Source: Vezdaea acicularis (lineage: Eukaryota). From it: DNA of 58,702 nucleotides. The position numbers and the translations under genes were made by a program. Positions 6,497-58,330 of this stretch are shown here, one piece after another (position 1 is the stretch's first letter; each line of letters starts with the position of its first letter). The stretch is taken from positions 62,001 through 120,702 of the forward strand of contig JAPEUI010000047.1 in assembly GCA_026025075.1 (NCBI GenBank), read 5' to 3'. The notes beneath the pieces were generated by a model. That model made no database searches. It saw nothing but the letters and a program-made list of their open reading frames with translations, and was not told where the DNA came from.

Positions 6497-7934
6497 ATGG
6501 CGGCAATATCCGGAGCGCCTAGGCAATTCAAGCAGCCTTCAAGAAAAGGTAAGAAGGCCTGGAGGAAAAATGTCGACGTTACGGAAGTGCAGGACGGCTT
6601 GGAAGTCGTCAGGCAGGAGGTGATATCAGGGTATGAATTACTGCAATTGATGCCGCGTACGTTATTTTGGGGAGATCCATGTTAAATCTATGATTTAGTG
6701 GGGTTATTGCGGAAAAGCAGTCGGAAGACCTCTTCACTGTCGATACTACCGCCTCAGAAAGCATTCAGAACAGCTATCTCAAAAAGCACAAACCACTTAA
6801 AGCTGATCAAATCCTCGCTCAGCGCTCTTTCATTCCCGCCGTCAGCACGCGTAAGCGACCTGGCGGTCCAAATACTACAGACGGTATCCTCGAGCCGCGG
6901 ACGAAGAAGCGAAAAGGAATAAGTCATAATGAATTGCAGCGACTACGTGACATTGCGCTTGGTGGTAGGCTGTCCGTCAAGACTCTTGTCGAGGAATCTG
7001 GGCCTCCCGATCACGATCCATGGGAAGAGAACGAATTGGTAGCAAATGCTTACCAGGACCCCCAATTCTCATTTCTTGAACCTCCAAAACCAATACGGGA
7101 ACCAACGACTTTGAAGCGGTCTCCAATCTCACTAGCGGTGAATGGCAAGCCAATTCCAGCTGTTGAAAAACCAGTAAGAGGTGCTAGCTACAACCCAGAT
7201 TATATTGACTACGTCACGTTACTGGAAGAAGAGGGTGAGAAAGCAGTCGAGGCGGAGAAAAAGCGCATTGCCCAACTAGAGGCCGAGAAAGCTCTAATTG
7301 CACGCCAAGAAGCGGCAGCTGAAGAGATGGAGAAAGACGCCTTGGTAGAGGGAGAAGATGAAGAGAGTGCGTGGGAAGGTCTTTCAGAACCGGAGAGCCA
7401 GGGAGAATGGTTGAATCGCAAGCGATCAGAGAGAAAGAGCCAGACTCAGAGGAATAAGATCAAACGGCGGAAGGTAGCAGAGAGGAAAGCTATCGAAGAA
7501 ATGAATAATAAGGCTCGAAAGGCAGAATTAACGAGGATAAAGGAATATGCGGCCGCCGCACGAGAAAAAGAAATGGCCCAATTAGCCTTGGCTTCGGAAA
7601 AAAGCTCTGACGAGGAAGAGGGAGATGCTAAATTGTTGAGACGGAGAAAATTTGGTAAAGCACCGTGAGTTTATTCTTCTTTCTAGCATTCTTAAACCCT
7701 TTTACTGACAGGTCATCGAGTCTCCCGGAGCCTCCACTAGAACTCGTCTTACCCGACGAACTGCGGGATTCCTTACGTTTATTGAAGCCGGAGGGCAATC
7801 TGCTGAAAGAAAGGTTTCGAAGCATATTGGTCAGAGGCAAAATGGAGACTAGACGGCCGATCGTTCAAGCGAAGAAGAGGAAACAAGAGGCCACAGAAAA
7901 ATGGACCTATAAGGATTGGACCTTGAGAGGGTAA
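6497..7934 (+). CDS. NOP53: Ribosome biogenesis protein Nop53/GLTSCR2
   Basis: QPSRKGKKAWRKNVD, LFTVDT motif, GASYNP, LELVLPDELRDSLRLLKPEGNLLKERFRS, EKWTYKDW; two introns. Confidence 0.92.
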
Positions 7935-15158: not shown

Positions 15159-16929
15159 ATGGTCAATCCAACGTGGACCTTCCGTCTGTTTACGGTTACT
15201 TTGCTTTTCATATTTAAAGCATTACTGTGCTCTTCCGTAGAGGCAGTGAGTGGAGATGCCTTGAAGAAGCAGGCCGAGCTTGAGAAGCTCTTTTGTCCTG
15301 ACTACAAGCACTACTCTGTCAACCAACAGTATGAGCACGAGCAATTACCTACAGAAAATCCACTGACGTAGATTTTCCAGTCGTCCCTTTAGTGAAGGCA
15401 AATTAAAGCTACCATTCCAACGCCCAGCCCCACAGTGTCGAACGTTTAAGTCGACATCTGTAGAGAAAGTCATAGACGACATTACGTCTCGCATGACAGA
15501 TCCTGACCTAGCACGCCTTTTTGAGAACGCGTTTCCAAATACTTTGGATACTACTGTACGTTGGCACATTACTGGAGGTGAGTCCAAGGTTGGCAAAACG
15601 CAAAAATTTCTCCAGAGCTTCATAGACCAAGGAAGATGGGAGGGTCCTCAAAGCTTTATCGTCACCGGGGACATCAACGCTGAATGGCTACGAGACTCGA
15701 CAAATCAGCTGGCACAGTATCAAGCTCTCGCTAAGAGTGACAAGAATCTTGAAACATTAATTCATGGAGCAATCAATACACAGGCAGAATACGTCATTCA
15801 GTCACCCTACTGCAATGCCTTCCAGCCTCCTCCACCTAGCAAACTGCCGCACACATCAAACAGACAAGATGATTTCGTGCATCCAGCGTACGAGCCTCTT
15901 TTTGTCTTCGAATGCAAGTGGGAGCTAGATTCTTTAGCGCACTTCCTTGGTCTCACAAACCAGTTCTATAGCAGCACTGGTTCAACTGCGTTCTTGAACA
16001 ACAGATGGTACCTTGCCCTGGAAACTCTCATATCCGTCCTGGACATGCAGTCAGAACCCACTTTTGATCCAGATACCAAACAATACCAGCAAAACGAATA
16101 CACCTGGCGTCGCGCGACAACTACTGGTACTGAAACCCTTAACTTGAATGGCATCGGCAACCCGCTCGCCAACGGTACTGGCCTTATCCGCAGTGCATTT
16201 CGCCCAAGTGATGACGCTACCATCCTTGGCTTCCTCATTCCATCCAACGCCATGATGGCTGTTGAGCTGCGCCGGACTGCGTCAATGCTTTCTATAGTAG
16301 GTAAAGCCGCGCTTTCGAAGAAGCTCCAGCGCCGTAGCGAGGAGATTGAACGTGGTATATGGGATCATGGTGTTGTGCAACACAAGCGATATGGCTCTGT
16401 TTTCGCCTTTGAGGTTGATGGATACGGCTCCTCTATTCTCATGGACGACGCAAACCTACCGTCGCTTCTCTCACTTCCACTTTTGGGGTTTGTTGAGGCA
16501 AGCGATAAGACATACCTGAATACCCGAAGGATGATCCTAGAAAAACAGGGAAACCCCTATTTCCTACAGGGCAAGGCGTTCAGTGGAATTGGCGGTCCGC
16601 ACGTGGGGCTACAGCATGCATGGCCCATGAGTCTGTTAGTGAGGGCAATGACGAGCGAAGACGATAGAGAGATTATGGATATGGTCAACTTGGTACTAAA
16701 CTCAAGTCAATTGGGTCTAGTGCATGAGAGCGTCTACGTGAATCGAGTGAACGATTTCACCCGTAAGTTCCAGTTCGACAGTTGCCTAATTTCGTACATT
16801 TACTGACTGTAAACAGGAAGCTGGTTCGCTTGGGCAAACTCTGTCTTTGCACAAACAATTCTAGATATTGCTAAACGAAAGCCCCATCTAATATTTGGGA
16901 AAGGTGCAGAGCCATACATCATATCTTAG
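15159..16929 (+). CDS. Secreted glycoside hydrolase family 125 (DUF1237; exo-alpha-1,6-mannosidase-like)
   Basis: Signal peptide; FENAFPNTLDTT, ITGDI-type motif (IVTGDINAEWLRDS), ECKWELDSL, SAFRPSDDA, MDDANLPSLL, WPMS, SWFAWANS; two introns. Confidence 0.92.
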
Positions 16930-41878: not shown

Positions 41879-41991
41879 TGAGAGGAGTGGGGATCGAACC
41901 CACGCGGTTTCCCAATACGGATCACAAGTACAACCTGCGTAACAGGTGCAAATGCCTAAACGTATCGCCATAACCACTCGGCCATCCTCCC
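41879..41991 (-). tRNA. tRNA-Leu(TAG) with 34-nt intron
   Basis: Acceptor GGGAGGA/TCCTCTC+A; D arm TGGCCGAGTGGTTATGGC; anticodon stem ATACG/CGTAT with TT-TAG-G; variable arm; T arm GTGGG-TTCGATC-CCCAC; T6 Pol III terminator at 41861-41866. Confidence 0.95.
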
Positions 41992-43505: not shown

Positions 43506-43994
43506 ATGAGTGTGCGTCTTACCGTCCCGTACATTACCCCAACTGCTAATATGCGACCTAGTTCGTGCCCATAAACCCCCGACCGCTCCTACAATCCCTG
43601 TAAGTACATCTCTTACCCTTCCCCAACCCACCTATTCACCTTTTTAACCCAAGCTGATCGCTGGTGCTGGTGATAACTAGAGTCAACGAGGAGGTCATCA
43701 TACGTCTCAAATGGGGGCAGACGGAGTATCATGGTCGGCTGGTCAGCGTGGACAGTTATATGAATGTGCAGCTGGATGGCGCGGAGGAGTATATCGATCA
43801 TAAGAAGACGAGTGGCTTGGGGCAGGTGCTGATTAGGTATGCGTCTTACCTTACTCCAGCATGGTTGAAGCGCTGTGGGTAACAGAGGTTGTGGAGTATA
43901 AGGGCGTACGGCTAATTGGTGGGTGCTGGATAGGTGTAATAATGTTTTGTGGATACAAGGGAAAACTAAGAAGGACACGGAAATGGACGGGTAG
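43506..43994 (+). CDS. SMX3: Small nuclear ribonucleoprotein SmF
   Basis: [46 protein letters not shown]...[13 protein letters not shown]. Confidence 0.93.
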
Positions 43995-44141
43995 GGGGAG
44001 AGCTGGTTAGCGGGCCAGGAAGAAGAGGACTGGATAGGGAGACCAGATCAATAGCGTTATTGGGTCATACCAAAAGTCACATGTGTCCATCAAGTATTGA
44101 ACGAGGTTCTGCAAACATACACTCAAGAGCGTATATATTGT

Positions 44142-47100
44142 TCACTCTATCTCTTCTATGACGGGTCTACGTTTACTGTCAGGATCAGGATCCGCCAGGC
44201 GTCTTGCCAGCACGTCCTCAGCGCGCTCTATTGAGGGCCCAGAAGCCGCATTGTCTGGTAGCCCTGTCAGATAACCTATGTGCCGTGCCTCTAGTGCATT
44301 GATTACGCTTGCGGCGTGTCCTCTAACAAGCTCATCGCCATCCGTATCATAGACCCAACCCAAGACTCTCAGAACAGCCTCAAGATTCTCTCCGGCAAGC
44401 CCAAAGCTTAGCTTCTTCCCCCTTTCAGCAGCCCCATCGAGCGCCGTGATGAGACTGTTAATCAGCAGCACTGCGGCTCGCCTGAGAATCTCCGTTCCGG
44501 GCTGTGACTCTAGTGTCAAGACTGACATCGCCAGATCTACGCCGGAATTCACCCTGGCGGGACCTATGCCTACGACATTCGTCTCCACAGCTTTGCCAAA
44601 GATGAGTAGCGCAGATGCGCGTATTCGTATATCTTCCTCCCCATCACGCCCTTCCCAGCCTTCCACAATCTTCAAGATCTCGTCCGCCCGCTGATCTTCC
44701 TCCTCCTCTTCATCCTCGTACAGATTCGGAACTTCGCCGCCCCATGCCTTGGCCGCTTCTTCGTTCTTGTTCGCTATAGTCTCGAGTCTCCTTCGCTTGT
44801 CTGCTTCCTCCTTAGGTCGTTTACCCCAACGCCCAGCTATGGAGAGACAGCCCTCCCCTATCCATCTGGCTGCGTCGCCGACGAGTAAGTCCCCCAGCTT
44901 TTCAACGACGCGAAGGAGCGTTTCGCCGATTCGAAGGCGCTGATCCAGCTGCATTCGCTCTTCGCGGTCTGCGTAGCTTTCTACGATGTGCTTGATCACT
45001 GTTTGCGGGTGGATGACGGCGAGTTCACCTAATGTCGTGATGGTGCTTAGGTACACGTAGTCCTCTGAGTCTTGCAGCATGCTGATGAGGAGAATGGTGG
45101 TAGAGGGGATGTCAAGGATAGGTGAGTGTGCTTTGATCAGACTCGTGAGTAAGGAGAGACCTTGGCCGCGTACAGGGGGAAGCTCGTCCATTAGGTAGTT
45201 TTGCGCGAGTGTGTAGGTTTTGCGGTCTTGACGGAGGGGGTCGGGCTCTGGCGCAGTAGGCTTTGCGGAGGAGAATGGAGCCGTGATAGTAATGTTAAGG
45301 AGGGCGGAGAGATTAGAGGCGGTTGTTGTCAGCGTTGGGGGGGCTGGAGCAGGGAGTTGAGAGATTCGTGTTAGAGATGATTGTATTGACTTGAGGGCTT
45401 TGTCCTGGCTCGGTGATGGGAGATAATCTTCTGACGTAAGGAGATTACTGAGGAGACTGAGGGCAATCGAAACAATTTCTTGGCGCTCATTTGCATGTTC
45501 TGATGTCTCATCACTCGGCACTTGCTCATCATGGCTGACAATGCTCCGTAGAGATGAGTGTAAGTCCATGGCTTTCTTTGCTTCATGTGCTTTGAGCTCC
45601 TCATCCTCATGACAGAAGTTGCTCAGGATCTGCTCGATTAGCTCGAGTAGCAAAGACGAATAGCTGGCAATTTTGTCCTTCATGAGATCCAACATGTTCT
45701 GGATGAGCTTGATATTAGCTATTTTCCCAAGCATAACTTGCTCATTCATAGCCGTGTCAGACGCTTCGAGAGCTTTAGGAGTCTCTGAGGACGGCTGAGC
45801 TCCTAGTAGCCAACTCTTGCTTATTGAAAGAAACACTTCACCAAGTTCGTGATCAAGTATGAGATCACCTCGTAGAAGCTTCATATATTCCTTCGCGCGT
45901 AGGTCGATATCGGAGACGCGCTCCATAAAGGTAGATGCATTTCCAACTAGATTGCTTCGACGTCGGACTTCTATACCCCCAGCACCCCCAGGAGCAAAGA
46001 CCCAGCCTCGTCGCCCATCGAAGAGCAAGTTCTGCCCTATTTTGATCATTTGCTCAGGGCCAGCAACCATCTTAAAGAACATGCGGATCAGATTGGATAC
46101 TCGTGAATACCACTTAGACTGCCTTCGCTTGGCAGAGTAGCAGAGGAGAGCCCAAAGAGGAAGGTAAAGGGGGGCGAGGAATCTCTTGGTCAAATTTGGG
46201 TTGGGGTGGGATGATAGTAAGATGTCAAGCCTGCTAATTGCCGTGTCAAGTTCAGTCTCTGACACAAGGCTGTTGAATGGGCTTTGCACCTGGTTGATAG
46301 GGGCTAACATTTCCGGATTTCCAAGGCTAGGATCAATATTGCTCAGGATCGGCTTTGCAAAGAGCTTCCAGCCGACCCCATCTGGCTTGCCATAGACTTT
46401 TTTACCAAGTATACCAGTACCAATAATGTATCCAGCAGCTTTGGCAATTTCAGGACCTGCCGATCCGTCTAGCAAGCTTAAGAGCTGCGTACTCAAGTCT
46501 GTAAACCAAATATCAGGCGCCATAGACCTTGGGACAGAGGAAAAAAGTCTTGAGGCAAGGTTTAGAGCTTTCATCGGTGTTACATCTTCTTTAGATGGGG
46601 TTGGTATCATATTTTGATCATAGCTGCGAATTGCGAAATATCGTACTGTATCACGGACACCATTGGGGCGAAGAGGTAATAGAGATAGTGTCTCTGTAAG
46701 ACGTTCTCGCAGCCAAGCTGGCGCCTCTGGATGTAGCAATTCTGTAAGGTTATAGAACAGCTGGGAAGTCGACGAACTTAAACGAAAACTTGTCAGCTTC
46801 TCTGCGTTGAGACGTAATCGTAATCGCAAGTGCACAGCAATTGAAGACTGTACCTTGAAAGTATATCCGAGAGCATTGGCAGAGATGAATTACACTCCAC
46901 GTATCCGGCATATGTAGGGTTCGCTCCAATTTCACAAAGGATGGCAATACGATCTGCAAAGGTGCGCTCCTGGATATCTTTCTCTAAACTCTGAACGCCG
47001 CCATGACCTTCTAAGGCTCCGAGATCATCTAGGTATTGAAAAAGTAATATTCTCTTCTCGTTGGAGCTAAGCTGGCTATCCCTCTCCGACCATTTTAGCT

Positions 47101-47525
47101 GAGAAACTGATCTAGTGCGCTTCTCTTTGGGAACGCCTACTCCATCTGACAAGCAAGGGTAGACCCCTTCTAGGAGAATGATGTCCAGTAGCAAGAACGC
47201 TGTAGGCGAGATAGTAGGGTTATGCGGCTGCCCCAGCTTAGAAACATCCCCCTTAAGGACAGCGTAGCGGACATCTCTCAGTAGAGCGATGGTATGGCTA
47301 ACGATCGCCACTCTAGCATTTGTACCTTCTTGCAACTGCGCAGTCGAGTTTAACCCCCCACGCAGACGATCAAGAACAGGCAACGCTCTAGAAGCTCGAT
47401 CCTTCTCTGCAATTTGTTGTCAGTTCGGAACATCGTAGAATCAAAATATGGAGTTCACTCTGTAGAGGAGCCAGATATGTCCGAGCAGCCGCTAGAGCTT
47501 GAGGAAGAGTTGGATGATTTTCCAT
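44142..47525 (-). CDS. RTP1: RNA polymerase II assembly factor Rtp1/TANGO6 (ARM/HEAT repeat)
   Basis: LEGVYPCLSDGVGVP, LPLRPNGVR, DELPPVRGQGL, LQDSEDYVYLS, LDQRLRIGE; start exon 47525-47459 and intron 47458-47407. Confidence 0.85.
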
Positions 47526-47706
47526 ACTCATCTGATGTCAGGTTGAATTGGGATATCGATACGGACTGATCAACCTCAACTAATCTCCTAAAAGTTACAT
47601 GACTGCAATGACCATGAAAATACCGCTTTAAATGATAGATAAAAAAAGGTGACTTCTCGCTCTGTTTCGAAAACTTGTCACATGCCGCCGTGACCAAAGC
47701 CGTTAA

Positions 47707-47740
47707 GCGACGCGGTGGGTCGCGTGTGTTCGCGTCGAGG
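47707..47740. promoter_or_regulatory. Three CGCG cores at exact 10-bp spacing (MCB/SCB-like)
   Basis: ACGCGG, TCGCGT and TCGCGT with CGCG starting at 47711, 47721 and 47731, between the RTP1 start and the candidate telomerase RNA. Confidence 0.45.
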
Positions 47741-47959
47741 TGATCTTCCCCTTCCTAGGCCTTCAAATTGCCTCTTCCACCAAATTTCTCTAATGACCCA
47801 GTGGAATTCAGCATGAAGTCAATGGAAAGACACATCTTCAAGCCCACTATCAACTGTACCCTGGTCCAATCGTCAGCTGACTTTGGCCAATCCAAACCTG
47901 TCAATCCTTGGCCTGCATTCTCTCCATCACTTGGAACATAGAGTGGTTTTACATATCAC

Positions 47960-50342
47960 GCACGTCACCTTCCCCATAGTTCTCCGAGTCTGATTCCCTA
48001 TCCGTTGGATGGTAGGCCCTTAGGCCCTTCAAGAGACTGCCAAGCTCCCGTTATTGCTGCACTTCGAGCCTCATAGCACGGTCTCATATGCTGTAGTGGA
48101 ACGCTGGAGTGTACCTTTCACGGTACCGGCCTTCAAGTCAAATGAGGAGGATGAAGCTCGGAACTTAACCCTAAGTATTCGTTGGTTGTCTTTTTTATTC
48201 GAAAGACGAGTTTCACGGTATAGTTGTCAATGACCTGAATAGGAATCTGGCGTCTCTTGTATCTGCTGTAAAGGCAGATATGATGCGTCTCCAGAGGACG
48301 AAAGGGGAGTTCGACGTCCAGAGTCCTTCGGACATTGAAATATGTGTTTTCCATGCGCCAATAAGGTAAATGTCTCACGAGAGACTGCGCGTCGGGCTCA
48401 CTTGCTGGACACCATACTCTGATCATCTACATGGTTGTTTGGGGATGCTTTGAGTGCTAAGAGACTTGATGGAGAGAGCAGGTGGCAAACATCGCATACC
48501 TCTTCTTGTGGATTATGTTCAGCACTCGCGCGCAGCCTTTCGTTCGGAGCACCGACACTATCATTGAGCCCTATCTTTGATCCAATATTCCAATTCAATT
48601 GGGTCAGGTTCCACGCAAGGGTCCATGCATCACGATCAAGGGCCACCTGTTGAAAGTTGTTCAAGGCACCAAATGCTCAGTTCGATTGTCGAGGGGTCTT
48701 TGAAGCATGAGCGCGAAGACCATCCCTCTTCTGGGATATTACCTACATACGGATCGCTCTACACAGACTTTCACTTCATATTTGTAATGAAGCTAGTCAT
48801 TCACGACTCGCTCGCTGTGATGACGTTATGCTATAATAGCAGACGGCTAGCGAAGTCGTCATTGCCACAAACTGAAAGTCTGTGTAGAGGCCTGGTCACT
48901 GTGTCGGATCTTCTATTAAGACGTCAGAGCAATGGTGTCTCGTCAGCTCCGAATGCTTGATTGACTCCTCGAATCGATGAGAGAGCTGGCATGATGTTAT
49001 TGGCGCTTACAACAGATCCCATGTTCAGGCATAAAACCTCTCCCTTGTTTCGTGGATTCGCTGATTCAAGGATTTGTTGGGATAGGATATGGCTTAGTCT
49101 AGCTGTTGGTGGAAGGTTCGACGATCGGCAGGCGAGAGTGATTTAGATGTCCGTCCGACCAGCTTTGCTTCCTTAAAAGCAGAGCCCCTTACTCTCCAAC
49201 CACCATCCTTAGTCACCCCGCCTCTAGCGTAAAGGGCTCTCCAAACCTATTCCACAGCACCCGCTAATGGAATAGCTCTCTCACTGAGAGTGGGACCTCG
49301 ATCAGCCGTTTCAATCACCTCCTCTTGTGTTCAGCATTAGATTTGACGGTGAACGCCAACATTACAGTCTCCTGGCGTTGTGCCATCAGACACCTCCTCC
49401 TTTACGGAGATGGAAGCGGTTTTTGTTGATGTATTTTGTCCGCTTATCACCTGCCCTCCAAGCAAATGACCCTCCTCATAATAGCGGTGGAGATGCGTTG
49501 GAGAGGAAACAAAGACTATCTCTGAGGGTAGTGCAATCACAAACCGAGAGAGGCATTTAGGCATTAGGCTGTTCCAGACGCGGATTGAATCGGATTAAAG
49601 AGATGACGCTCCACGACGCGAGTGCCAGTATGGGTTTTGGCACGTCTGGTAACGACCTCTCTAAGGAATATGCGGTTCTGTTGGTGGCCGTTTCTCCTGT
49701 TTCTACCTACGCACCTCTCAAAGCCAGGAATGGATTGATGGCATCATCAGCTGCCTTATCTAGTCTCAAATCTCTGCTCGTCTGTGGTGTTCACGATCAG
49801 GCTTCATACAAACCGCTCAGCTTCGCAAAACCCCGGCATCGTGGTAAATTCTCCTCCGAATGACTCAGTCTGGCTCCTTGGCTTGCGCGCCCTTGGGAAA
49901 TTCTGTTTTAGCATTGAAGACGAGAGTACAGGACCTTTCTCGCGTAAGGCTCAGGGTTTTGTACCCGTCTGTTCGCTCGGATCCATTGCGAAGCAAATTC
50001 TCCCTGGAAGATAGGAACGTGCATTGTCGAAAGCTAGATGAGTTCTAGTGGGGTCGGCGGCCCAAGCAGTAGCAGCAAGGTCTTGTCTTAGCGCACTTTG
50101 GATGGGTTCATGTGGAGTGTCTGAGTGAAGGAGAGCAAGATGGTGTTGACACAAGAGGAGGCGACGTTGCTCTGAGTAGGTCAGCTGGGAAATGCGGGAG
50201 CGTCCTGCAAGCAGAGGATAAGAAGGCTTAGTTGAAAGGGCAAGATCGTATGCTAGTATACCTTGGTGGGGAAGTGTGGAGGGAGCCGAGGAGGCTCGGG
50301 CTGTGCTCTGCTATAGCAGAGAACAGCCCTATCTTGTTTTTT
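47960..50342 (+). ncRNA. TER: Candidate telomerase RNA (TER), ~2.4 kb; 5' end approximate
   Basis: Template TAACCCTAA 48166-48174; boundary helix 48063-48074/48151-48162; perfect helices 48757-48773/48873-48889 (17 bp) and 49318-49330/50149-50161 (13 bp); terminal hairpin 50298-50329, U-tract, then GTGAGC...GCTAAT...CAG; no credible ORF. Confidence 0.75.
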
Positions 50343-50853
50343 GTGAGCACCCTAATGTTCGCTGGAAAGGTCATGCTAATAGCTTGTTTACTGGCAGGGG
50401 CTAGCTTGCGGAGGCTGGACTGACATCGATGACTAGTGTTATGGAGCATTGAGCTCAATCCCCACCGAGTACTAGCGTGATTCACTAGACGATACGATAT
50501 GCAGGACTTTTGGGTTGCTGAACTTCTTGGGCCAATTGCCATACTTTTTTTTACAAAACTACATTGCACTTAGTAGGCTTGTGCGTTGATCGTTTTACCG
50601 AATTGAAGGGCTGGTCTAAGCGTAAACCTCCCAATACTAGTTAGCGTCGTAGTTCCTGCGTCACTGCAGATTAAGCGAAACTTATTTTCTCCACACTTCC
50701 TGGAACGAGCATGAGCAAGGATCTTTTCATGTGGGGCCGCCACCAGGAGCGTTCCTTTTAGTTGCATCTACCTCCAATAGTGCCTGCTTTATCAACTTCT
50801 TCATCAATTGCGTATCCTGATATGGTATTTCTTTTAGATATCCTGACCTGAAG

Positions 50854-53800
50854 ATGGCTCATCCGCAAACTCCAATGGCTCTTGCCCCTCCAGTAGAGCG
50901 AATGATGTTTGACGGCTATGCCGAGCGGCCTCCAGATCTACCCGAAATAGCGGATGACGAACAATTTTCATCTATCGTGAGCAAGCTTTCATCGTAAGTA
51001 GTATCCTCATATAAGTATGCTCTCATCACATCTACTTAGTCCGTCTTTCCTCCAGGTGCATCATTGATGCAATCGATGGGCCCCACACTTTTGAGCAGAT
51101 GCGGACATCACACGAGGGGCGCGAGCTGAGACTATTGGTCTCCCACCTCTCCGCGAACGTCAGACATCCTGCGATCGTCAATGCTATACTGTGCGTTAAA
51201 TGAACTCTACCAGAGTTCAGTTCAATTCACACTGACATGATCATCTTGTAAGAGCTCTGAAATGGCACTTTGCCTCGCTCGAACCAGACGACCGCGGTCT
51301 GAATCAGACAAGAGGACATGCATGCGAAATCGTGGCCTGGCGGTTTTTAGCCCACCTTTCTGAGTCTGACATCATTAACTATTTGCTATATGAATTGCCA
51401 GGACCATCAGCAAACTCTGACGAGCCAAGAGACGTGGAGAATGGTCATTCAGTGTTGCATGAATCTTCTTTACCGGAGGTCCATGAAGGAACTCCTCTGA
51501 TTCCAAGCCCTCACATCTCTGTGTACCAAAGGCATAACCGGTCTAAATCCTCTCTGAGCCATACTTTTCAGGCTCGAGTGGAGCGAACGCTCTCTTCTAG
51601 CTTGGAGGAAGATCCCATGGCAATTTTCATTGGGCTGAATGGCCTGGAAGTTGCGGCAGTAGCGGACGCTAAAAGCTTTCTCGGCCAACGCAAGGTACAG
51701 GAAGTGCTGAACGGGATCTGGAAAGGAGACATTGTCTTCTGGGAGACACTATCCCGGAACTCGAGAAAGAAGGCCCATTTCTACAATAAGCGGTTGGTCC
51801 TGACAAGTTTCTCGCCCAGCTCAATACTGAAAGCTTTCTAGGAAAGCCGATCCTTACTGTCGGCTGAGAGTACCTAAGTACCAAAAGGTCTTCGAGGCGC
51901 TGTTCTTCGCTTCATTTTTAGCACTATACTATGCAGTATTGGTGGAGCGAAATCCTCGCCATGTCACTCCTACTGAGATACTATTATATATCTGGATCGC
52001 GGCATTTGCATACGACGAGTTGAGCGAGTTCAGAGATGCAGGTACTTTGTTTTATTCAACGGACTTTTGGAGCTCTTGGGATCTTGGGATTATTGGAATT
52101 GGGGTAGCATTTTTTGTGGCTCGTAAGTGAAATCCGTCCGCTGCTGGGGTTTCCCAAAATGCGGGATAGAGAGTGCTCGTTCTAGTGTTGTTGCCTGAGA
52201 GTAGGCAAATTGCTGACATGTGCTGCTTGAAGGGCTGATCGGACTAATCAAGATGGATGACAATATCATTGATACAGCTTTCGATATATTGTCACTCGAA
52301 GCACTTTTCCTTGTTCCACGGTCAGTACCTTCTATCCTTTGCAAAGATAAGAGGACTGTTGACGCGCTACTAGTATATGCTCTTTATTGAGCTTACATCC
52401 ATATTTCGGAACGCTGGTTCGTATCAAACTGTAGTATCCAGAGTCAATTATGCTGACTCTCAATTCTCATGAAGATCCCGTGTTTGAGAGAGATGGTAAG
52501 ATCCCTATTTTCTGAATTAGCCCGCTACATGGGAAATATCGCAGAGCTCACCTCGAGTCCACAGTGGAACGATATACTGACCTTATTTAGACGAAGGACT
52601 TTGTCAAATTCCTTGGAGTTGTAGTTATCCTCTATCTGGGTAGGTAGAATCTCAGTCCATTGATCCGGGCCCTATCCTGGGTCGTAAATCCTCTCCTTTC
52701 GAACACTCCAGGCTGGGGAATTTTTGTATAAGTATTGGGCTGATTAGAGATCACGATTGCCGCAGGTTTTCTTACCACTTTTACCTTGCTAGCAAGAGAA
52801 AAGTTCACGCCAAGCGAAATGTCTTGGATCTTGATCAAGGTCTTCTTTGGGTACGGCCCCCCATAATTGTCAAGAGCAAATGAGTCTAATTAGCAACCTC
52901 TGATTAGCTCGAGTTATCTTGGATTTGTAAGTCTCCATTCATGGTTGTATTGTCAGTTGATGCAAGCATTAACAACGATTCATAGGACGTTATGCGCGAG
53001 GTACTATTCTAGCAATCGCGCCTTGAAAATATGAGCTGACTTTGCCATATCAAGATATCCCCGTATCTCGGGCCACCTGTGATGGTGAGACGATTCAAGT
53101 GTTTCAAAAGCGAATGCCCTGACGTGGTGGCTTGCAGCTTGTGTTTGTGTGTTTGACACAGATTCTACTCGTGACGTCCCTCATCAGTCTTCTAAGCAAC
53201 AGCCTGACTAAGGTACGTAAATCTTTATTTATCATCGCCGTACACCGTTAGGTCGTTTCAGGAATGCTGAAACAGACGCGATATGCAGGTGATGGATCAT
53301 GCAAGGTATGTGCCCGATCGGGGTATGCGGAGGTGGGAACTGAATTCACCATGCTGACGGGGCAACAATAGGGAAGAATATCTATTTATTTTTAGCGTCT
53401 ACATTTTAGAGGTGAGCCGCGACCCAATGACAGGCTGCGCTATCGCCAAGCGGGATCGATGCTGCACCTCCGATTGGTGAATGCGCGCATGAGCCGATTG
53501 TCCCCAGGCCCCACGACCCAGATATCACGCCACCCGTCAAGCCCTCCCCACTGACAGCGCTCTACCGCCTAGGCATCCACGTCGAATCGACTGACCTACT
53601 TTTATCCTCCGCTGGTACGTCTTCGGCCCTACCCTTCGATTGGGTCTCGCTCCGGCGGGGAGCATCTCTGTAGGGCACCTGATCGCATGAACTGACTGTC
53701 GCAGAACCTGCTCCCATTGGTGTTTCTGCGCCCGCTCCGGCTTTTCGTCCCGGCGGAGAAATTACGTCATGCGCGGATCGTGCTGCTCAAGGTGACCCAT

Positions 53801-54172
53801 TGCGGCTACCTGGGTGCCATCATGGCCTTCGAAACCGTCAGCAATCGCCTGGCGCCTAAGTCGGATGGGAACAAGGCTGGGACGTGGGCCGAAGAGACAA
53901 TGGACTCTCGTCAGTCAAGGGATCACGCCAGTTCACAGCGTCGGCGGCCGGCGTTGGATGGGCGTGCGTCGCTTAGCAAGACTGGGCAAGAGGGGCATCA
54001 AGAGCCGAATGCGCACGCGAAAGGCAGGCACGGCAGGAAGGGGAAGGAGGCCGAGAAGAATGAGGAAAGAGGCAAAGCCGATGCGAGCGAGTTGCACGAG
54101 TTGATCGCCCGGCTCAGTCAGCAGGTCGACGAACTGAGGGATGTCGTCGCGGAGCAGCGCCGCCGTTTGTAA
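50854..54172 (+). CDS. YVC1: TRP-family vacuolar cation channel (Yvc1-like)
   Basis: TRGHACEIVAWRFL, LEVAAVADAKSFL, IWKGDIVFW, RLRVPKYQK, EALFLVPR, LIKVFFG/SSYLGF, LISLLSNSL; about 16 introns. Confidence 0.85.
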
Positions 54173-55891
54173 GGAAAGCCACGGCGGCCGCGATACCGAT
54201 AGAGAGAAGGCAGGCTTGAGGCTAGAGCAGGCCTGCAGCCGGAGCGAAGTCACCCATCACATCCGTCACAACCTTCAATTTCGCGGAGGGGCCGACCGAC
54301 GCCAGACAAGCCTCGTTGTTTCAGACGTCCATGACAAATGCAGCAGCTCCCGTCAGGGCCCGTCAGGGTTCACCGTGCGTCTATTCACGGCCGCTGCGTC
54401 TAAATCGGTAAACAGGGAGTAGGCCCTGGCCTGGCGTGCTGAGGCCGTCTTCGTCGCGGTTACGCGGGAGGGTCGTCGCGCGAGGAGAATTGCGCAGCTG
54501 GGACGCATGAGCGCGCTTACAGGCGATCCGTGCAGATCCCACGTTGGCACGCCCTTGCTCGGTCTCGTCACGATATGGCCGGAGGAAGGCCGACCGCGGT
54601 TCTGCGTGCAGTGCTCGCAGGCCCTCTCTCCGTTGAAACCGCGACTTACGCGGGCGCCGCCGCGGGTTCCTAAACATAACTCGGGTCTCGCGTGCGACGG
54701 TCTCACTAGCGTCAGCCCATGATGTTTCAGGTTTCGGGGTGTTGGGTCGGGTTCAGGACCGCTCGGTCCAGTCACCGCCCGCCGCTCCGCACCCTGTCCC
54801 GCCCGCGAACCTCTGGCTCGCGGACGGCCCGTGAGTGCTGCTCGAATAAGCATCAGCCATGGTCCAGCCACCGTCGCAACCGCCAACATCGCGACTGCCG
54901 TATCCTCTCGCAACGGCCCTTCCTAAATCGGGGTCGCGCGCGATGGTCGGCAGCCCGTGCGAGGGCCAGCAGCCGCATGGAGGCCTCTGCGCGGGGGCAC
55001 TGGAGCCGGCGACCACGACGACGCAGCATCGCACAGCAGCTGCGCGGTTGGTAGAAACGGCGACGCAGCAACGGTAATAACGAATGGGCGAACGAAAGCA
55101 CGACGAATGTCGAGGATCCAACAGGCCGGCGCACGAGCAGCAGGGCCGGTTCTTCCAAATCGCCGACGCCGTTGGGGGGAGGGGGGACGGTGGGCGATCG
55201 CCCGCAGAGATGGCCGCTCATTTGGCCGGTGTGGCCGACCACGGTGCGGGCAGGGGTGCGTCACAGACGAGGGTGGCCCATTCGCCCACGGCCCGCAAGG
55301 CACTCTCCTCCCCCGTCCCCCCTCGTCCCCCCTCGTCCCCCCTCCACCCTTACACATCACGACAAACCAGCGCCATCCGCACTCTCCACCACCCCCTCGT
55401 CTCCCACCGTTCCACCCCCTCCCGCCCTAGCCCACGCTCGGCATTAGCGGGCCTGCAATCGGGTTGCATGTTGGTAAAGGTAGTAATTGCGGACATCTAA
55501 CACCGAACTGCATCATGGCGGCCGGTTATCGATTTCGAGGAGCTCTATTTGATCGATGCGCGCCGCACCATCATCGGCGCATTTCTCGTCTCCATCCCAC
55601 ACCGCGCGCGCCGTCCGCCTTTCTCCCAGGATCCGATATTTATACATACCCTTTGATCTCCCTGCTCCGCCACTGCATTTCAATCCCCATCTCAATCTGC
55701 CTCGGTCTCTCCTCCCTCCCCCCTTCTCCACCTGCTCGTTGCGACTCGCGACTCCCCCTCCAGACCAGGGTGCGGCCGTCTCGAGTCAGACCTGTTTCGC
55801 CGCCTGTTGGCTTCTCCATTCGCTAACAACCAACACCTGCCCCCGGATTCGGACCTCAGCCCTTTAAGGCGAACTTGGACCACTCGGTGCC

Positions 55892-57342
55892 ATGACTTCT
55901 GCAAACGCCCTCGCAATGTCGGCTGGTCAGCAGCACCAGCACCAGCACCAGCACCAGCAACAGCAGCAGAAGGATTCGCGGACGCCATTCTCGTACAATC
56001 CGCCTTACGCTTCTCCACGTCCATCGGAGTCCGTGGTACTCTTACAACACTCGGAGCAGGGGCTCGATGTCTATGACAATTCCATGCCCACGGCGGCCAA
56101 TGCGAGCATCGCCGCATCCGCAGTGCCTGCCGTGTGGTCGCGGCAGGACTATTTAGACCTCGTCTCATCTGGTCCACCTCCCGATATCTTCTCGGCCGCA
56201 TTCGATCCGTTCGCCACCCTCGAGTCTAGCAATCAATTCTTGTATCCGGAAGCGCGGACATCCTCGACCGTCCCCGAGCTATCATCTTCCCCCACTCCAT
56301 CAGTCAGCCGATCTTGCCGGTCATCCATCTCCCGCAGTCCATCCGAATCATTCTCCCTGCAAGCCCCGCCTGAAGCCTTTGCGCCCAAGGTCAAGATGGA
56401 GGACGGACAGGATTACTATATGCCCGATGCTTCCATGCTCAGCGGCGCCGGCCCCGAGGTATATCTCTACTCCACGTCGGGGGATGTCCAGCCGGTGGCG
56501 ACGTACGGGTCGGTCGCCAACCAATCCTACCCGCCCTCCGAGTATGGATACCAGATCAGCGAACGCTCCTCTTATGAGGACCTCGAGAGCGGAGAGACCA
56601 GCCCAGGAAAGATCACGAATGCTGAGCGCACCCGGAGCAAGGCAAAACGCAATGCCACCACGAGGGAGAATGCGAATCATGAATGCCATATCTGTGGCAA
56701 GCTCTTTGCACGGAGTTACAACTATAAAGCCCATATGGAGACGCACGATCCGACACGGGAACATCCGCATGTGTGCATGGTGAAGAACTGCGGCAAGAAG
56801 TTTGTGCGTAAGACGGATCTTCTGAGGCATCATTCAAGTGTATGTCCCTTGTAAAGCTCATAGATTGCATGTATTCAAAAGTCTGACTTTTACCACACAG
56901 GTCCATGAAAAACAACGCAATTACCAGTGCCACCTGTGCGGGAACCTCTTTGCCCGGAAAGACACGCTCCGAAGGTAATTGTTGCCCACTTGGTTCCAAT
57001 TGAAATTTTACTGACAACCGTCGCAGACACACCGAAGACGGTTGCTCCAAGCGCTTTGAGATTGCCACAACAGGCTACGTTCCGGCCACGGAGCCCGCCT
57101 ACCCCACGACGCAGTCCGCCTACTCCACGACGCAGCCATACAGCACCACCGCGTACGGAGTCTCCTCCCCGCTGATGCAACCGTCCCCCTACGCCATCCG
57201 CGGCGTCCTTCCCCAGCAGCAGCAGCAGCAGCAGCAACAACAGATGAGCCCTCTCCCGCCACCCAGCTCTTCCGCCGCACCGTCGGGTGTGCTTCCCTCC
57301 ATATCGCAGGTTTACCCCAATTACAACCCGCGCCCGTATTAA
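55892..57342 (+). CDS. C2H2 zinc-finger transcription factor (3 fingers)
   Basis: CHICGKLFARSYNYKAHMETH, CMVKNCGKKFVRKTDLLRHHSS/VH, CHLCGNLFARKDTLR/RHTEDGC; two introns; stop 57340-57342. Confidence 0.9.
55928..55969 (+). repeat. (CAGCAC)n/(CAG)n coding microsatellite encoding QQHQHQHQHQQQQQ
   Basis: cagcagcaccagcaccagcaccagcaccagcaacagcagcag. Confidence 0.85.
57214..57243 (+). repeat. (CAG)n polyglutamine tract in the last exon of the C2H2 gene
   Basis: CAG x7, CAA CAA CAG. Confidence 0.85.
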
Positions 57343-58330
57343 AGCATCTCGCGCGCCAAGCTGCTACAACAAAAATAAAATCCACCTGTCCTTTCCGTTC
57401 CAAGCGATACGAGCATTTTCACGGCCATAGCATAGAAGCCTTTTTGGGTATGTGTGTACGTGGGTCAACTCGGGGTGTGAGTGGTGTTTCCGGCGTCACG
57501 ACTGGGTGCTTGGGTTATGGACCTGGGGTCGGCGCTCCTTCTTTTTTCCATTTTTATCGCCTCGTTTCGTTCTTCGTCTGTTGTTTCTTCTTCTTTGGTT
57601 TAAATCAGGGCTTGGCGGGTTGCGCGGACGCGCAAGGGGGAGGTGATTCGCAATACACGGATGTTCGTATCAACACGTTTTTTTCTTCTTGGCGGGTGTA
57701 GGGCCGTGGCGGGGGCAAGGGGCAGGTGTGGGACAGGCGGCGGGCGGCGAGCGTGCATTTTCTGCATCTGGGGACCGAGCCTGGGGCGTGGCCGGGGGCT
57801 GGACGTACTAGGGATTGTGTTTTTTGGAAAGGGAAGGAGAGGGGGGGGTGGGGGGGTGGTGGGGATAGACGTATCAACTGTACTCGTAGCTTCCAAAAGT
57901 CTTCCTCTTTCTCGGGCAATAGCCATGTCAGGTGTGAAATCCGACTCGTTGGTACAGGGGAGAGGAGAGAGAGGAAGAGGGAAGGACGAGGATGGCAGCG
58001 CGGGAAAGCTTGGCTTAGCTACTGTGGCAGAGAATAGGGAATACCGCACTTCCATCCATTCAGACCATACCATCCATACCATCCACCATCCACCAAACCC
58101 GGACCAGGCTGACTCGCAGCCAACATGTCCCCACCCAGCACCAGCCGCACACCTATCCAACACCCAGCCCAGCCCAGCTCATCTCTCGGTCGCGGGGGGT
58201 GATGTGACCTATCAGCAGCGCGCAGACCTTTGTCGTCGTCGACTGAGATGGTGGGGTGGGGTGCGGTGCGGTGGATGGTTGGATCGGACGGTCCGTTATT
58301 CTTCTTTCTTCACGCTCTGGAGGAGGGATT

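Follow-up and report, generated by a model that had tools for sequence, protein, structure and literature searches.

The 58,702-base stretch of fungal DNA studied here (hereafter, the window) carries on its forward strand, at about 47.75–50.34 kb, a telomerase RNA (TER) gene, whose 3' end is a compact cassette of two hairpins, a U-rich tail and a 55-nt intron (50283–50397). As judged from its sequence, this cassette is a GU-donor form of the TER terminal intron, and is thereby unlike the rule published for filamentous fungi, according to which an A at intron position 1 halts the spliceosome after the first cut (Kannan 2015, PMC4299874). Here the orthologous intron naturally has G at position 1, in a TER that is otherwise intact and conserved. 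By analogy with known TERs, we lean, without strong conviction, towards first-step cleavage at 50342/50343 as the source of the mature 3' end, and infer that this end is made by cleavage without exon ligation.

The template, the pseudoknot/triple-helix region and the three-way junction lie in this order on one strand, the arrangement that identifies a TER gene, and the longest open reading frame (ORF) in 47.9–50.85 kb is at most 127 aa. The 18-nt context of the template is identical in the window and in the metagenomic TER loci L001/L006 and L005, and differs by one base in L003 (these loci are described below). The pseudoknot region matches the Rfam family RF02462 locally at 29.4 bits (gathering score 30; E-value 3.4e-6). 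For the three-way junction, with helices named after Qi 2013, RNAalifold applied to the window, L006, L004 and L008 yielded 14 pairs, six of them compensatory; two of the latter are in P6.1, where GGGU/ACCC in the window corresponds to AAGU/GCUU in the compared loci. In addition, a conserved block in the 5' region sits approximately 180–205 nt 5' of the template in both the window and L006. Rfam searches of the TER 5' part returned nothing relevant.

Comparators were obtained by scanning metagenome contigs with a pseudoknot pattern, which produced eight TER loci; the same pattern found no loci in genome contigs. Five of the eight stop before the 3' cassette, among them L003, which has the closest pseudoknot, and L008, truncated inside its terminal hairpin. 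The 3' end is reached in the other three (L001, L006 and L004). L001 and L006 are identical over the stretches compared, so that two independent comparators are available. In L006, as in L001, RF02462 matches over its full length (676.8 bits), and its last position corresponds to base 3540 of L006, one base ahead of ATAAGT. L004 contains the pseudoknot pattern, the junction and the cassette.

The cassettes of the window, L004 and L006 agree in composition and spacing. Their U-rich tails are 13, 13 and 14 nt long, respectively, and are followed by the donors GUGAGC, AUAAGU and AUAAGU and the branch sites UGCUAAU, UGCUAAA and UGCUAAC; the distance from the donor to the branch A is 36, 38 and 37 nt, and that from the branch A to the AG is 18, 13 and 9 nt. 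The 3' strand of the terminal hairpin is likewise similar, reading GAGAACAGCCC in the window, GAGGGCAGCCC in L006 and GAGGCGGUCC in L004, with GGGAGGACAACCCC as the Rfam consensus, and a compensatory change (CCUC/GAGG vs. CUUC/GAAG) distinguishes this hairpin in L008 and L004. As the same module of hairpin, tail, donor, UGCUAA and AG recurs in two independent TERs, the window cassette is very probably orthologous to the TER terminal intron of the AUAAGU type, with AUAAGU replaced by GUGAGC. The acceptor context GGCAG-GGGC, common to the window (50,390–50,402) and L004 (2555–2606), also speaks for orthology, as does the compensatory change in L008; such identity of the acceptor context in very diverged loci would be odd if the acceptor were never used in introns of the AUAAGU type.

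The initial annotation, made from the letters of the window, had proposed this cassette as a variant spliceosomal 3'-end signal. Its placement at the end of a TER holds, given the template, pseudoknot and junction upstream and the match in elements and spacing to two metagenomic terminal introns, and every coordinate that it gave for the hairpin, tail, donor, branch site, AG and CAG was confirmed to the base. The label "Sm-site-like", attached to the stretch ATCTTGTTTTTT (50331–50342) within the tail, is acceptable in the loose sense of Aspergillus (CGGC3-5U7-12) and fails in the strict sense of AU5-6GR, to which GUUUUUUGU does not conform. The arrangement CAGCCC-UAUCUUGUUUUUU-GUGAGC places a pyrimidine/U-rich Sm-like tract directly 5' of the donor, and a GCUAAC-like branch site with a downstream AG follows, both as in the Aspergillus/Neurospora type.

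The two hairpins have a folding energy of -33.5 kcal/mol, with z-scores of -3.52 for 50270–50342 and -4.13 for 50273–50342, and none of 200 shuffled sequences folded as well for either stretch. The composite pattern T5-GTRNGN-N15-45-CTRAY-N6-30-YAG has a single match on both strands of the window, namely the cassette, with 0.04 matches expected; at least one match occurred in three of 100 shuffled windows. There are 13 donor-like hexamers [AG]T[AG][ACT]GN in 49980–50860, and only GTGAGC at 50343 is preceded by a U-rich 12-mer (9/12 T, compared with at most 5/12 for the other 12 hexamers). The region between the acceptor and the next gene (50398–50853) contains neither of the polyadenylation motifs AATAAA and ATTAAA. 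The terminal intron itself has an unremarkable fold (z-score 0.00; as good a fold in 90 of 200 shuffles). Its minimum free energy (MFE) structure pairs the donor GUGAGCA with UGUUCGC located 6 nt downstream (50343–50362; 7 bp, two of them G-U). A stem hiding the donor in this way could in principle modulate donor use; it was set aside, as it appears in the MFE fold, yet the stretch folds no better than shuffled sequences.

GUGAGC differs from AUAAGU at positions +1, +3 and +6, and no ATA[AC]GT was found on the forward strand in 43,706–51,010. In the window cassette, the A-first donor AUA(A/C)GU of the Aspergillus/Neurospora type is replaced, and with a canonical GU donor exon ligation cannot be blocked by the known effect of A at +1. 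The initial annotation had suggested another block, in which a branch-proximal AG (50381–50382, within UAG at 50380–50382, its G 3 nt past the branch A) stalls the second step. This finds no support, as a normal CAG is present at 18 nt and a probable coding intron (15329–15380) has a similar AG 4–5 nt after its branch A. AGs very near the branch point are bypassed in splicing. A further intron considered as an example, 7665–7720, was dropped, since its CAG may itself be the acceptor.

If the first-step reading holds, RNA polymerase II would transcribe past both the terminal hairpin and the U-rich tail and enter the 55-nt intron, and a spliceosome would assemble on GUGAGC and UGCUAAU. The first catalytic step would free the TER body ending in UUGUUUUUU with a 3'-OH at 50342, and the hairpin together with Sm/LSm binding would then shield this end. 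Release after the first step would presumably be kinetic and partial, proceeding via discard as in S. pombe and leaving some fully spliced RNA as a by-product; it would rest on a feature that the sequence does not reveal rather than on the branch-proximal AG. The principal argument for cleavage is positional: the U-tract abuts the donor with the spacing seen in TERs of the AUAAGU type, which points to cleavage at the donor, since after full splicing the tract would be internal and without obvious role.

All filamentous-fungal TERs known so far are described as matured by spliceosomal cleavage (Kuprys 2013, PMC3603654; Kannan 2015, PMC4299874; Podlevsky & Chen 2016), and reviews ascribe to them a "distinct", A-first donor. 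In Aspergillus, the TER end consists of CGGC3-5U7-12, followed by AUAAGU (for A. nidulans, AUACGU) and GCUAACU (Kuprys 2013; Kannan 2015). The window cassette resembles this Aspergillus/Neurospora type in its position in the RNA, the C-rich hairpin strand, the U-rich tail, the abutting donor, the GCUAA-type branch site about 37 nt further on and the AG, but lacks A at +1, the feature shown there to block exon ligation. In S. pombe TER1, a canonical GU donor that touches or overlaps the Sm site still gives cleavage only; there, a branch site perfectly complementary to U2 and a long distance from branch to acceptor slow the second step (Kannan 2015). With that system the window shares G at +1 and a U-tract running into the donor (GUUUUUU-GUGAGC), and cleavage would similarly rest on kinetics and discard; in contrast, the window branch site is not a perfect complement of the canonical U2 site, its 18-nt spacing lies within the local range, and the lineage belongs to Pezizomycotina. 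Beyond the GU donor touching the U-tract, the window cassette has nothing distinctive in common with the S. pombe type.

Two further groups have known or predicted TER terminal introns with GU donors. The TER1 introns of S. cryophilus and S. octosporus have the donor GUCAGU, with C at +3 and hyperstabilized pairing with U6 (Kannan 2015). They are similar to the window intron in that their remaining features look ordinary, but the window lacks C at +3 and its donor touches the U-tract, whereas theirs lies 14–27 nt downstream; by inspection, GUGAGC pairs less, not more, with the U6 ACAGAG box. For TERs of the Yarrowia clade, S. pombe-like GU donors after an Sm site were likewise predicted from sequence alone (Cervenak 2019, PMC6746865); these are predicted motifs of Saccharomycotina, with a degenerate branch motif and variable spacing. 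The literature covered, with the survey of Qi 2015 outside it, gave no TER intron of a filamentous fungus in which +1 is G, although a prior description is possible.

Several observations weigh against first-step cleavage. In A. niger, changing A1 of the TER intron to G made it mainly spliced, with the cleaved form reduced more than 10-fold and telomerase activity almost nil (Kannan 2015), and hence a natural G1 predicts full splicing unless it is compensated. The base at +3 is G, not the C of the S. cryophilus/S. octosporus donor, and UGCUAAU differs at two positions from UACUAAC, the canonical U2 complement, although the host's own U2 may differ. The intron also resembles its neighbors. A screen of the window for short introns whose removal restores a long reading frame gave 30 candidates, compared with five in a reversed-sequence control, and 15 of the 30 were picked by eye as the most intron-like; the other 15 were dropped for unusual donors (such as GTTTGG, GTCTGT or GTCAGC), for a location within an uninterrupted ORF or as alternative ends of one intron. 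The picked introns have donors GTAAGT, GTGAGT, GTAAGA, GTATGA, GTAAGC, GTAAGG and others, with T, A, G and C at +6 in eight, five, one and one cases, respectively, and their branch-to-acceptor distances are 10–21 nt, a range whose upper part includes the 18 nt of the cassette. GTGAGC and the 18-nt spacing are thus ordinary in the window, and none of the three published second-step blocks is evident in the terminal intron. Finally, both independent comparators, as all eight loci, are distant, with BLAST aligning the template and pseudoknot only; neither the window nor L004 has a match to RF02462 or, for L004, to any Rfam family at gathering level; and Rfam searches of the 3' part (49520–50450 and 50255–50345) gave chance-level microRNA (miRNA) and small nucleolar RNA hairpin matches only, well under the gathering scores.

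The same canonical donor, the ordinary length, branch site and spacing of the intron, and the Aspergillus A1-to-G result (Kannan 2015) speak for the main alternative, which we regard as less likely, namely that the intron of the TER precursor is ordinarily and fully spliced. The 3' end would then arise by exonucleolytic trimming of a polyadenylated precursor, spliced or unspliced, back to the hairpin and protein-bound U-tract, or would lie within the second exon, e.g., near the T8 run at 50545–50552; the strong hairpin just 5' could indeed stop a 3' exonuclease. However, a U-tract touching the donor, with a 13–14-nt tail as in the AUAAGU type, makes sense only where the end results from cutting at the donor. 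No second cassette of U-tract plus donor follows through 50860, and S. pombe demonstrates cleavage with a GU donor (Kannan 2015).

A true cleavage donor of the A-first kind could instead be AUAAGA at 50218–50223, using the same branch A at 50379 and making the hairpins and the U-tract intronic. Its context GAGG-AUAAG is reminiscent of GGAGG-AUAAGU in L006, with which there is a 9-nt match, GAGGATAAG, and A at +6 is common among local donors (GTAAGA, GTATGA). We nevertheless consider this improbable: the preceding 12-mer has one T in 12, the 180 nt upstream are devoid of U-rich or Sm-like tracts, CTRAY branch motifs are lacking ahead of 50352, the conserved spacings between hairpin, tail and donor and between donor and branch site fit 50343 and not 50218, and the GAGG context is absent from L004. 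Equally doubtful is the scenario that the initial annotation itself had named as refuting its proposal, in which the intron belongs to a long 5' untranslated region (UTR) of the mRNA for the downstream YVC1-like channel. That gene is on the same strand, with the acceptor 456 nt 5' of its ATG at 50854, but such a UTR would begin inside the TER and hold six upstream ATGs (50398–50853), and the spacing and flanks of the intron are orthologous to TER terminal introns at loci with different downstream sequences. A coincidental, functionless grouping of hairpin, T-run and splice-like motifs could be argued from the shortness of each motif and from the Rfam matches of the hairpin, which are to miRNAs at chance level; still, the expectation of 0.04 composite matches per window, the hairpin z-scores of -3.5 to -4.1, and a position, strand and internal spacings as in other TERs make it hardly credible.

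Should first-step cleavage be the correct reading, the window may exemplify a fourth mode of uncoupling the first splicing step from the second, independent in origin, in which a deep Pezizomycotina lineage swapped AUAAGU for a GU donor and still makes its 3' end by the first step only; we advance this tentatively, its chances falling a little short of even. Independence would follow from the lineage, which differs from that of S. pombe. The determinant might then, with the same reserve, be neither A at +1, nor C at +3 combined with hyperstabilized U6 pairing, nor a perfect branch site with long spacing; release of an Sm/LSm-bound, hairpin-capped 5' exon is one possibility. If an unknown feature restrains exon ligation, the cassette would provide a clean natural system for studying the uncoupling of the two steps and the discard pathway. 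Alternatively, the lineage would have changed how its TER is finished. Searches keyed to AUAAGU will miss TER 3' ends in unsampled fungal classes.

Table 1. Features of the TER gene, its terminal cassette and the flanking genes in the window.
Feature	Position	Strand	Remarks
RTP1/TANGO6-type gene	44,142-47,383	-	upstream of TER
CG-rich cluster (AGCGACGCG ... CGCGTCGAG), then pyrimidine-rich stretch	47706-47739	+	possible TER promoter/start
Conserved 5'-region TER block GCACGTCnCCTnCCCCAnAGTTCTCCGA	47960-47988	+	BLAST 89% over 28 nt vs. L001 and L006
Template TAACCCTAA	48166-48174	+	1.5 repeats complementary to TTAGGG; within conserved context CGGAACTTAACCCTAAGT
Pseudoknot/triple-helix region	49416-49520	+	Rfam RF02462 (Telomerase_Asco), covering 1285-1381 of the 1858 model positions
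Three-way junction	49928-49972	+	P5 49928-31/49969-72; P6 49932-37/49946-52; P6.1 GGGU 49954-57, loop UUUGU, ACCC 49963-66
Small hairpin GAGCC-GAGGA-GGCTC	50283-50297	+	in MFE and centroid folds
Terminal hairpin GGGCTGT-G-CTCTGC-TATA-GCAGAG-A-ACAGCCC	50298-50329	+	32 nt
U-rich tail UAUCUUGUUUUUU	50330-50342	+	single-stranded, 13 unpaired nt in fold; putative Sm/LSm-like site and predicted mature 3' end
Terminal intron	50343-50397	+	55 nt; donor-to-branch-A offset 36 nt; branch A to 3' splice site 18 nt
Donor GTGAGC (GUGAGC)	50343-50348	+	directly abuts U-rich tail
Branch site TGCTAAT (UGCUAAU)	50374-50380	+	branch A 50379
Acceptor CAG	50395-50397	+	
Putative second exon and termination region of TER precursor	50398-50853	+	also promoter/5' UTR space of next gene; T8 at 50545-50552
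YVC1/TRPY1-like channel gene, start	50854-52130	+	continues past 52130; Pfam matches of ORF pieces: LHD_TRPY1 (E 1.6e-7), YVC1_C (E 7.5e-10); outside RNA module

The 5' end of the TER possibly lies at about 47,750–47,765. It is placed there by analogy to L006, in which Rfam sets the 5' end at 1769, 198 nt before the shared block and just past GCGCGTCTCCGCG. The CG-rich cluster at 47706–47739 includes two matches, each with one mismatch, to the Aspergillus promoter motif CRCGDCGCG; matches of this kind occur at chance level across the window (47 vs. 43.8 expected). If the 5' end assigned by analogy is right, the RNA would be about 2.6 kb long, compared with roughly 2 kb for the Aspergillus and Neurospora RNAs, which are described as among the longest known. 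The distance from the pseudoknot to the 3' end is 926 nt in the window, 540 nt in L006 and 818 nt in L004.

The TER gene occupies the 3.3 kb between the RTP1/TANGO6-type and YVC1/TRPY1-like genes. Identity of the RTP1 protein to named fungi does not exceed 41–42% (Candelina, Glutinoglossum, Teloschistes) and is 31–35% to Sordariomycetes, Eurotiomycetes and Dothideomycetes. In a quick tree, RTP1 had a long branch and fell into an unresolved polytomy within Pezizomycotina, and a 97%-identical RTP1 protein is encoded in a Logan contig (P0001). The source fungus thus appears to represent a deep, poorly sampled class-level lineage of Pezizomycotina, whose TER is probably unexamined.

Elsewhere in the window, a transfer RNA (tRNA) gene was identified at 41,879–41,991 on the reverse strand (Rfam, 44.9 bits); it contains a 37-nt insertion in the anticodon-loop region, presumably a tRNA intron. 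The G+C content of 54,001–58,000 is 0.57–0.64, compared with about 0.46–0.53 in the remainder of the window.

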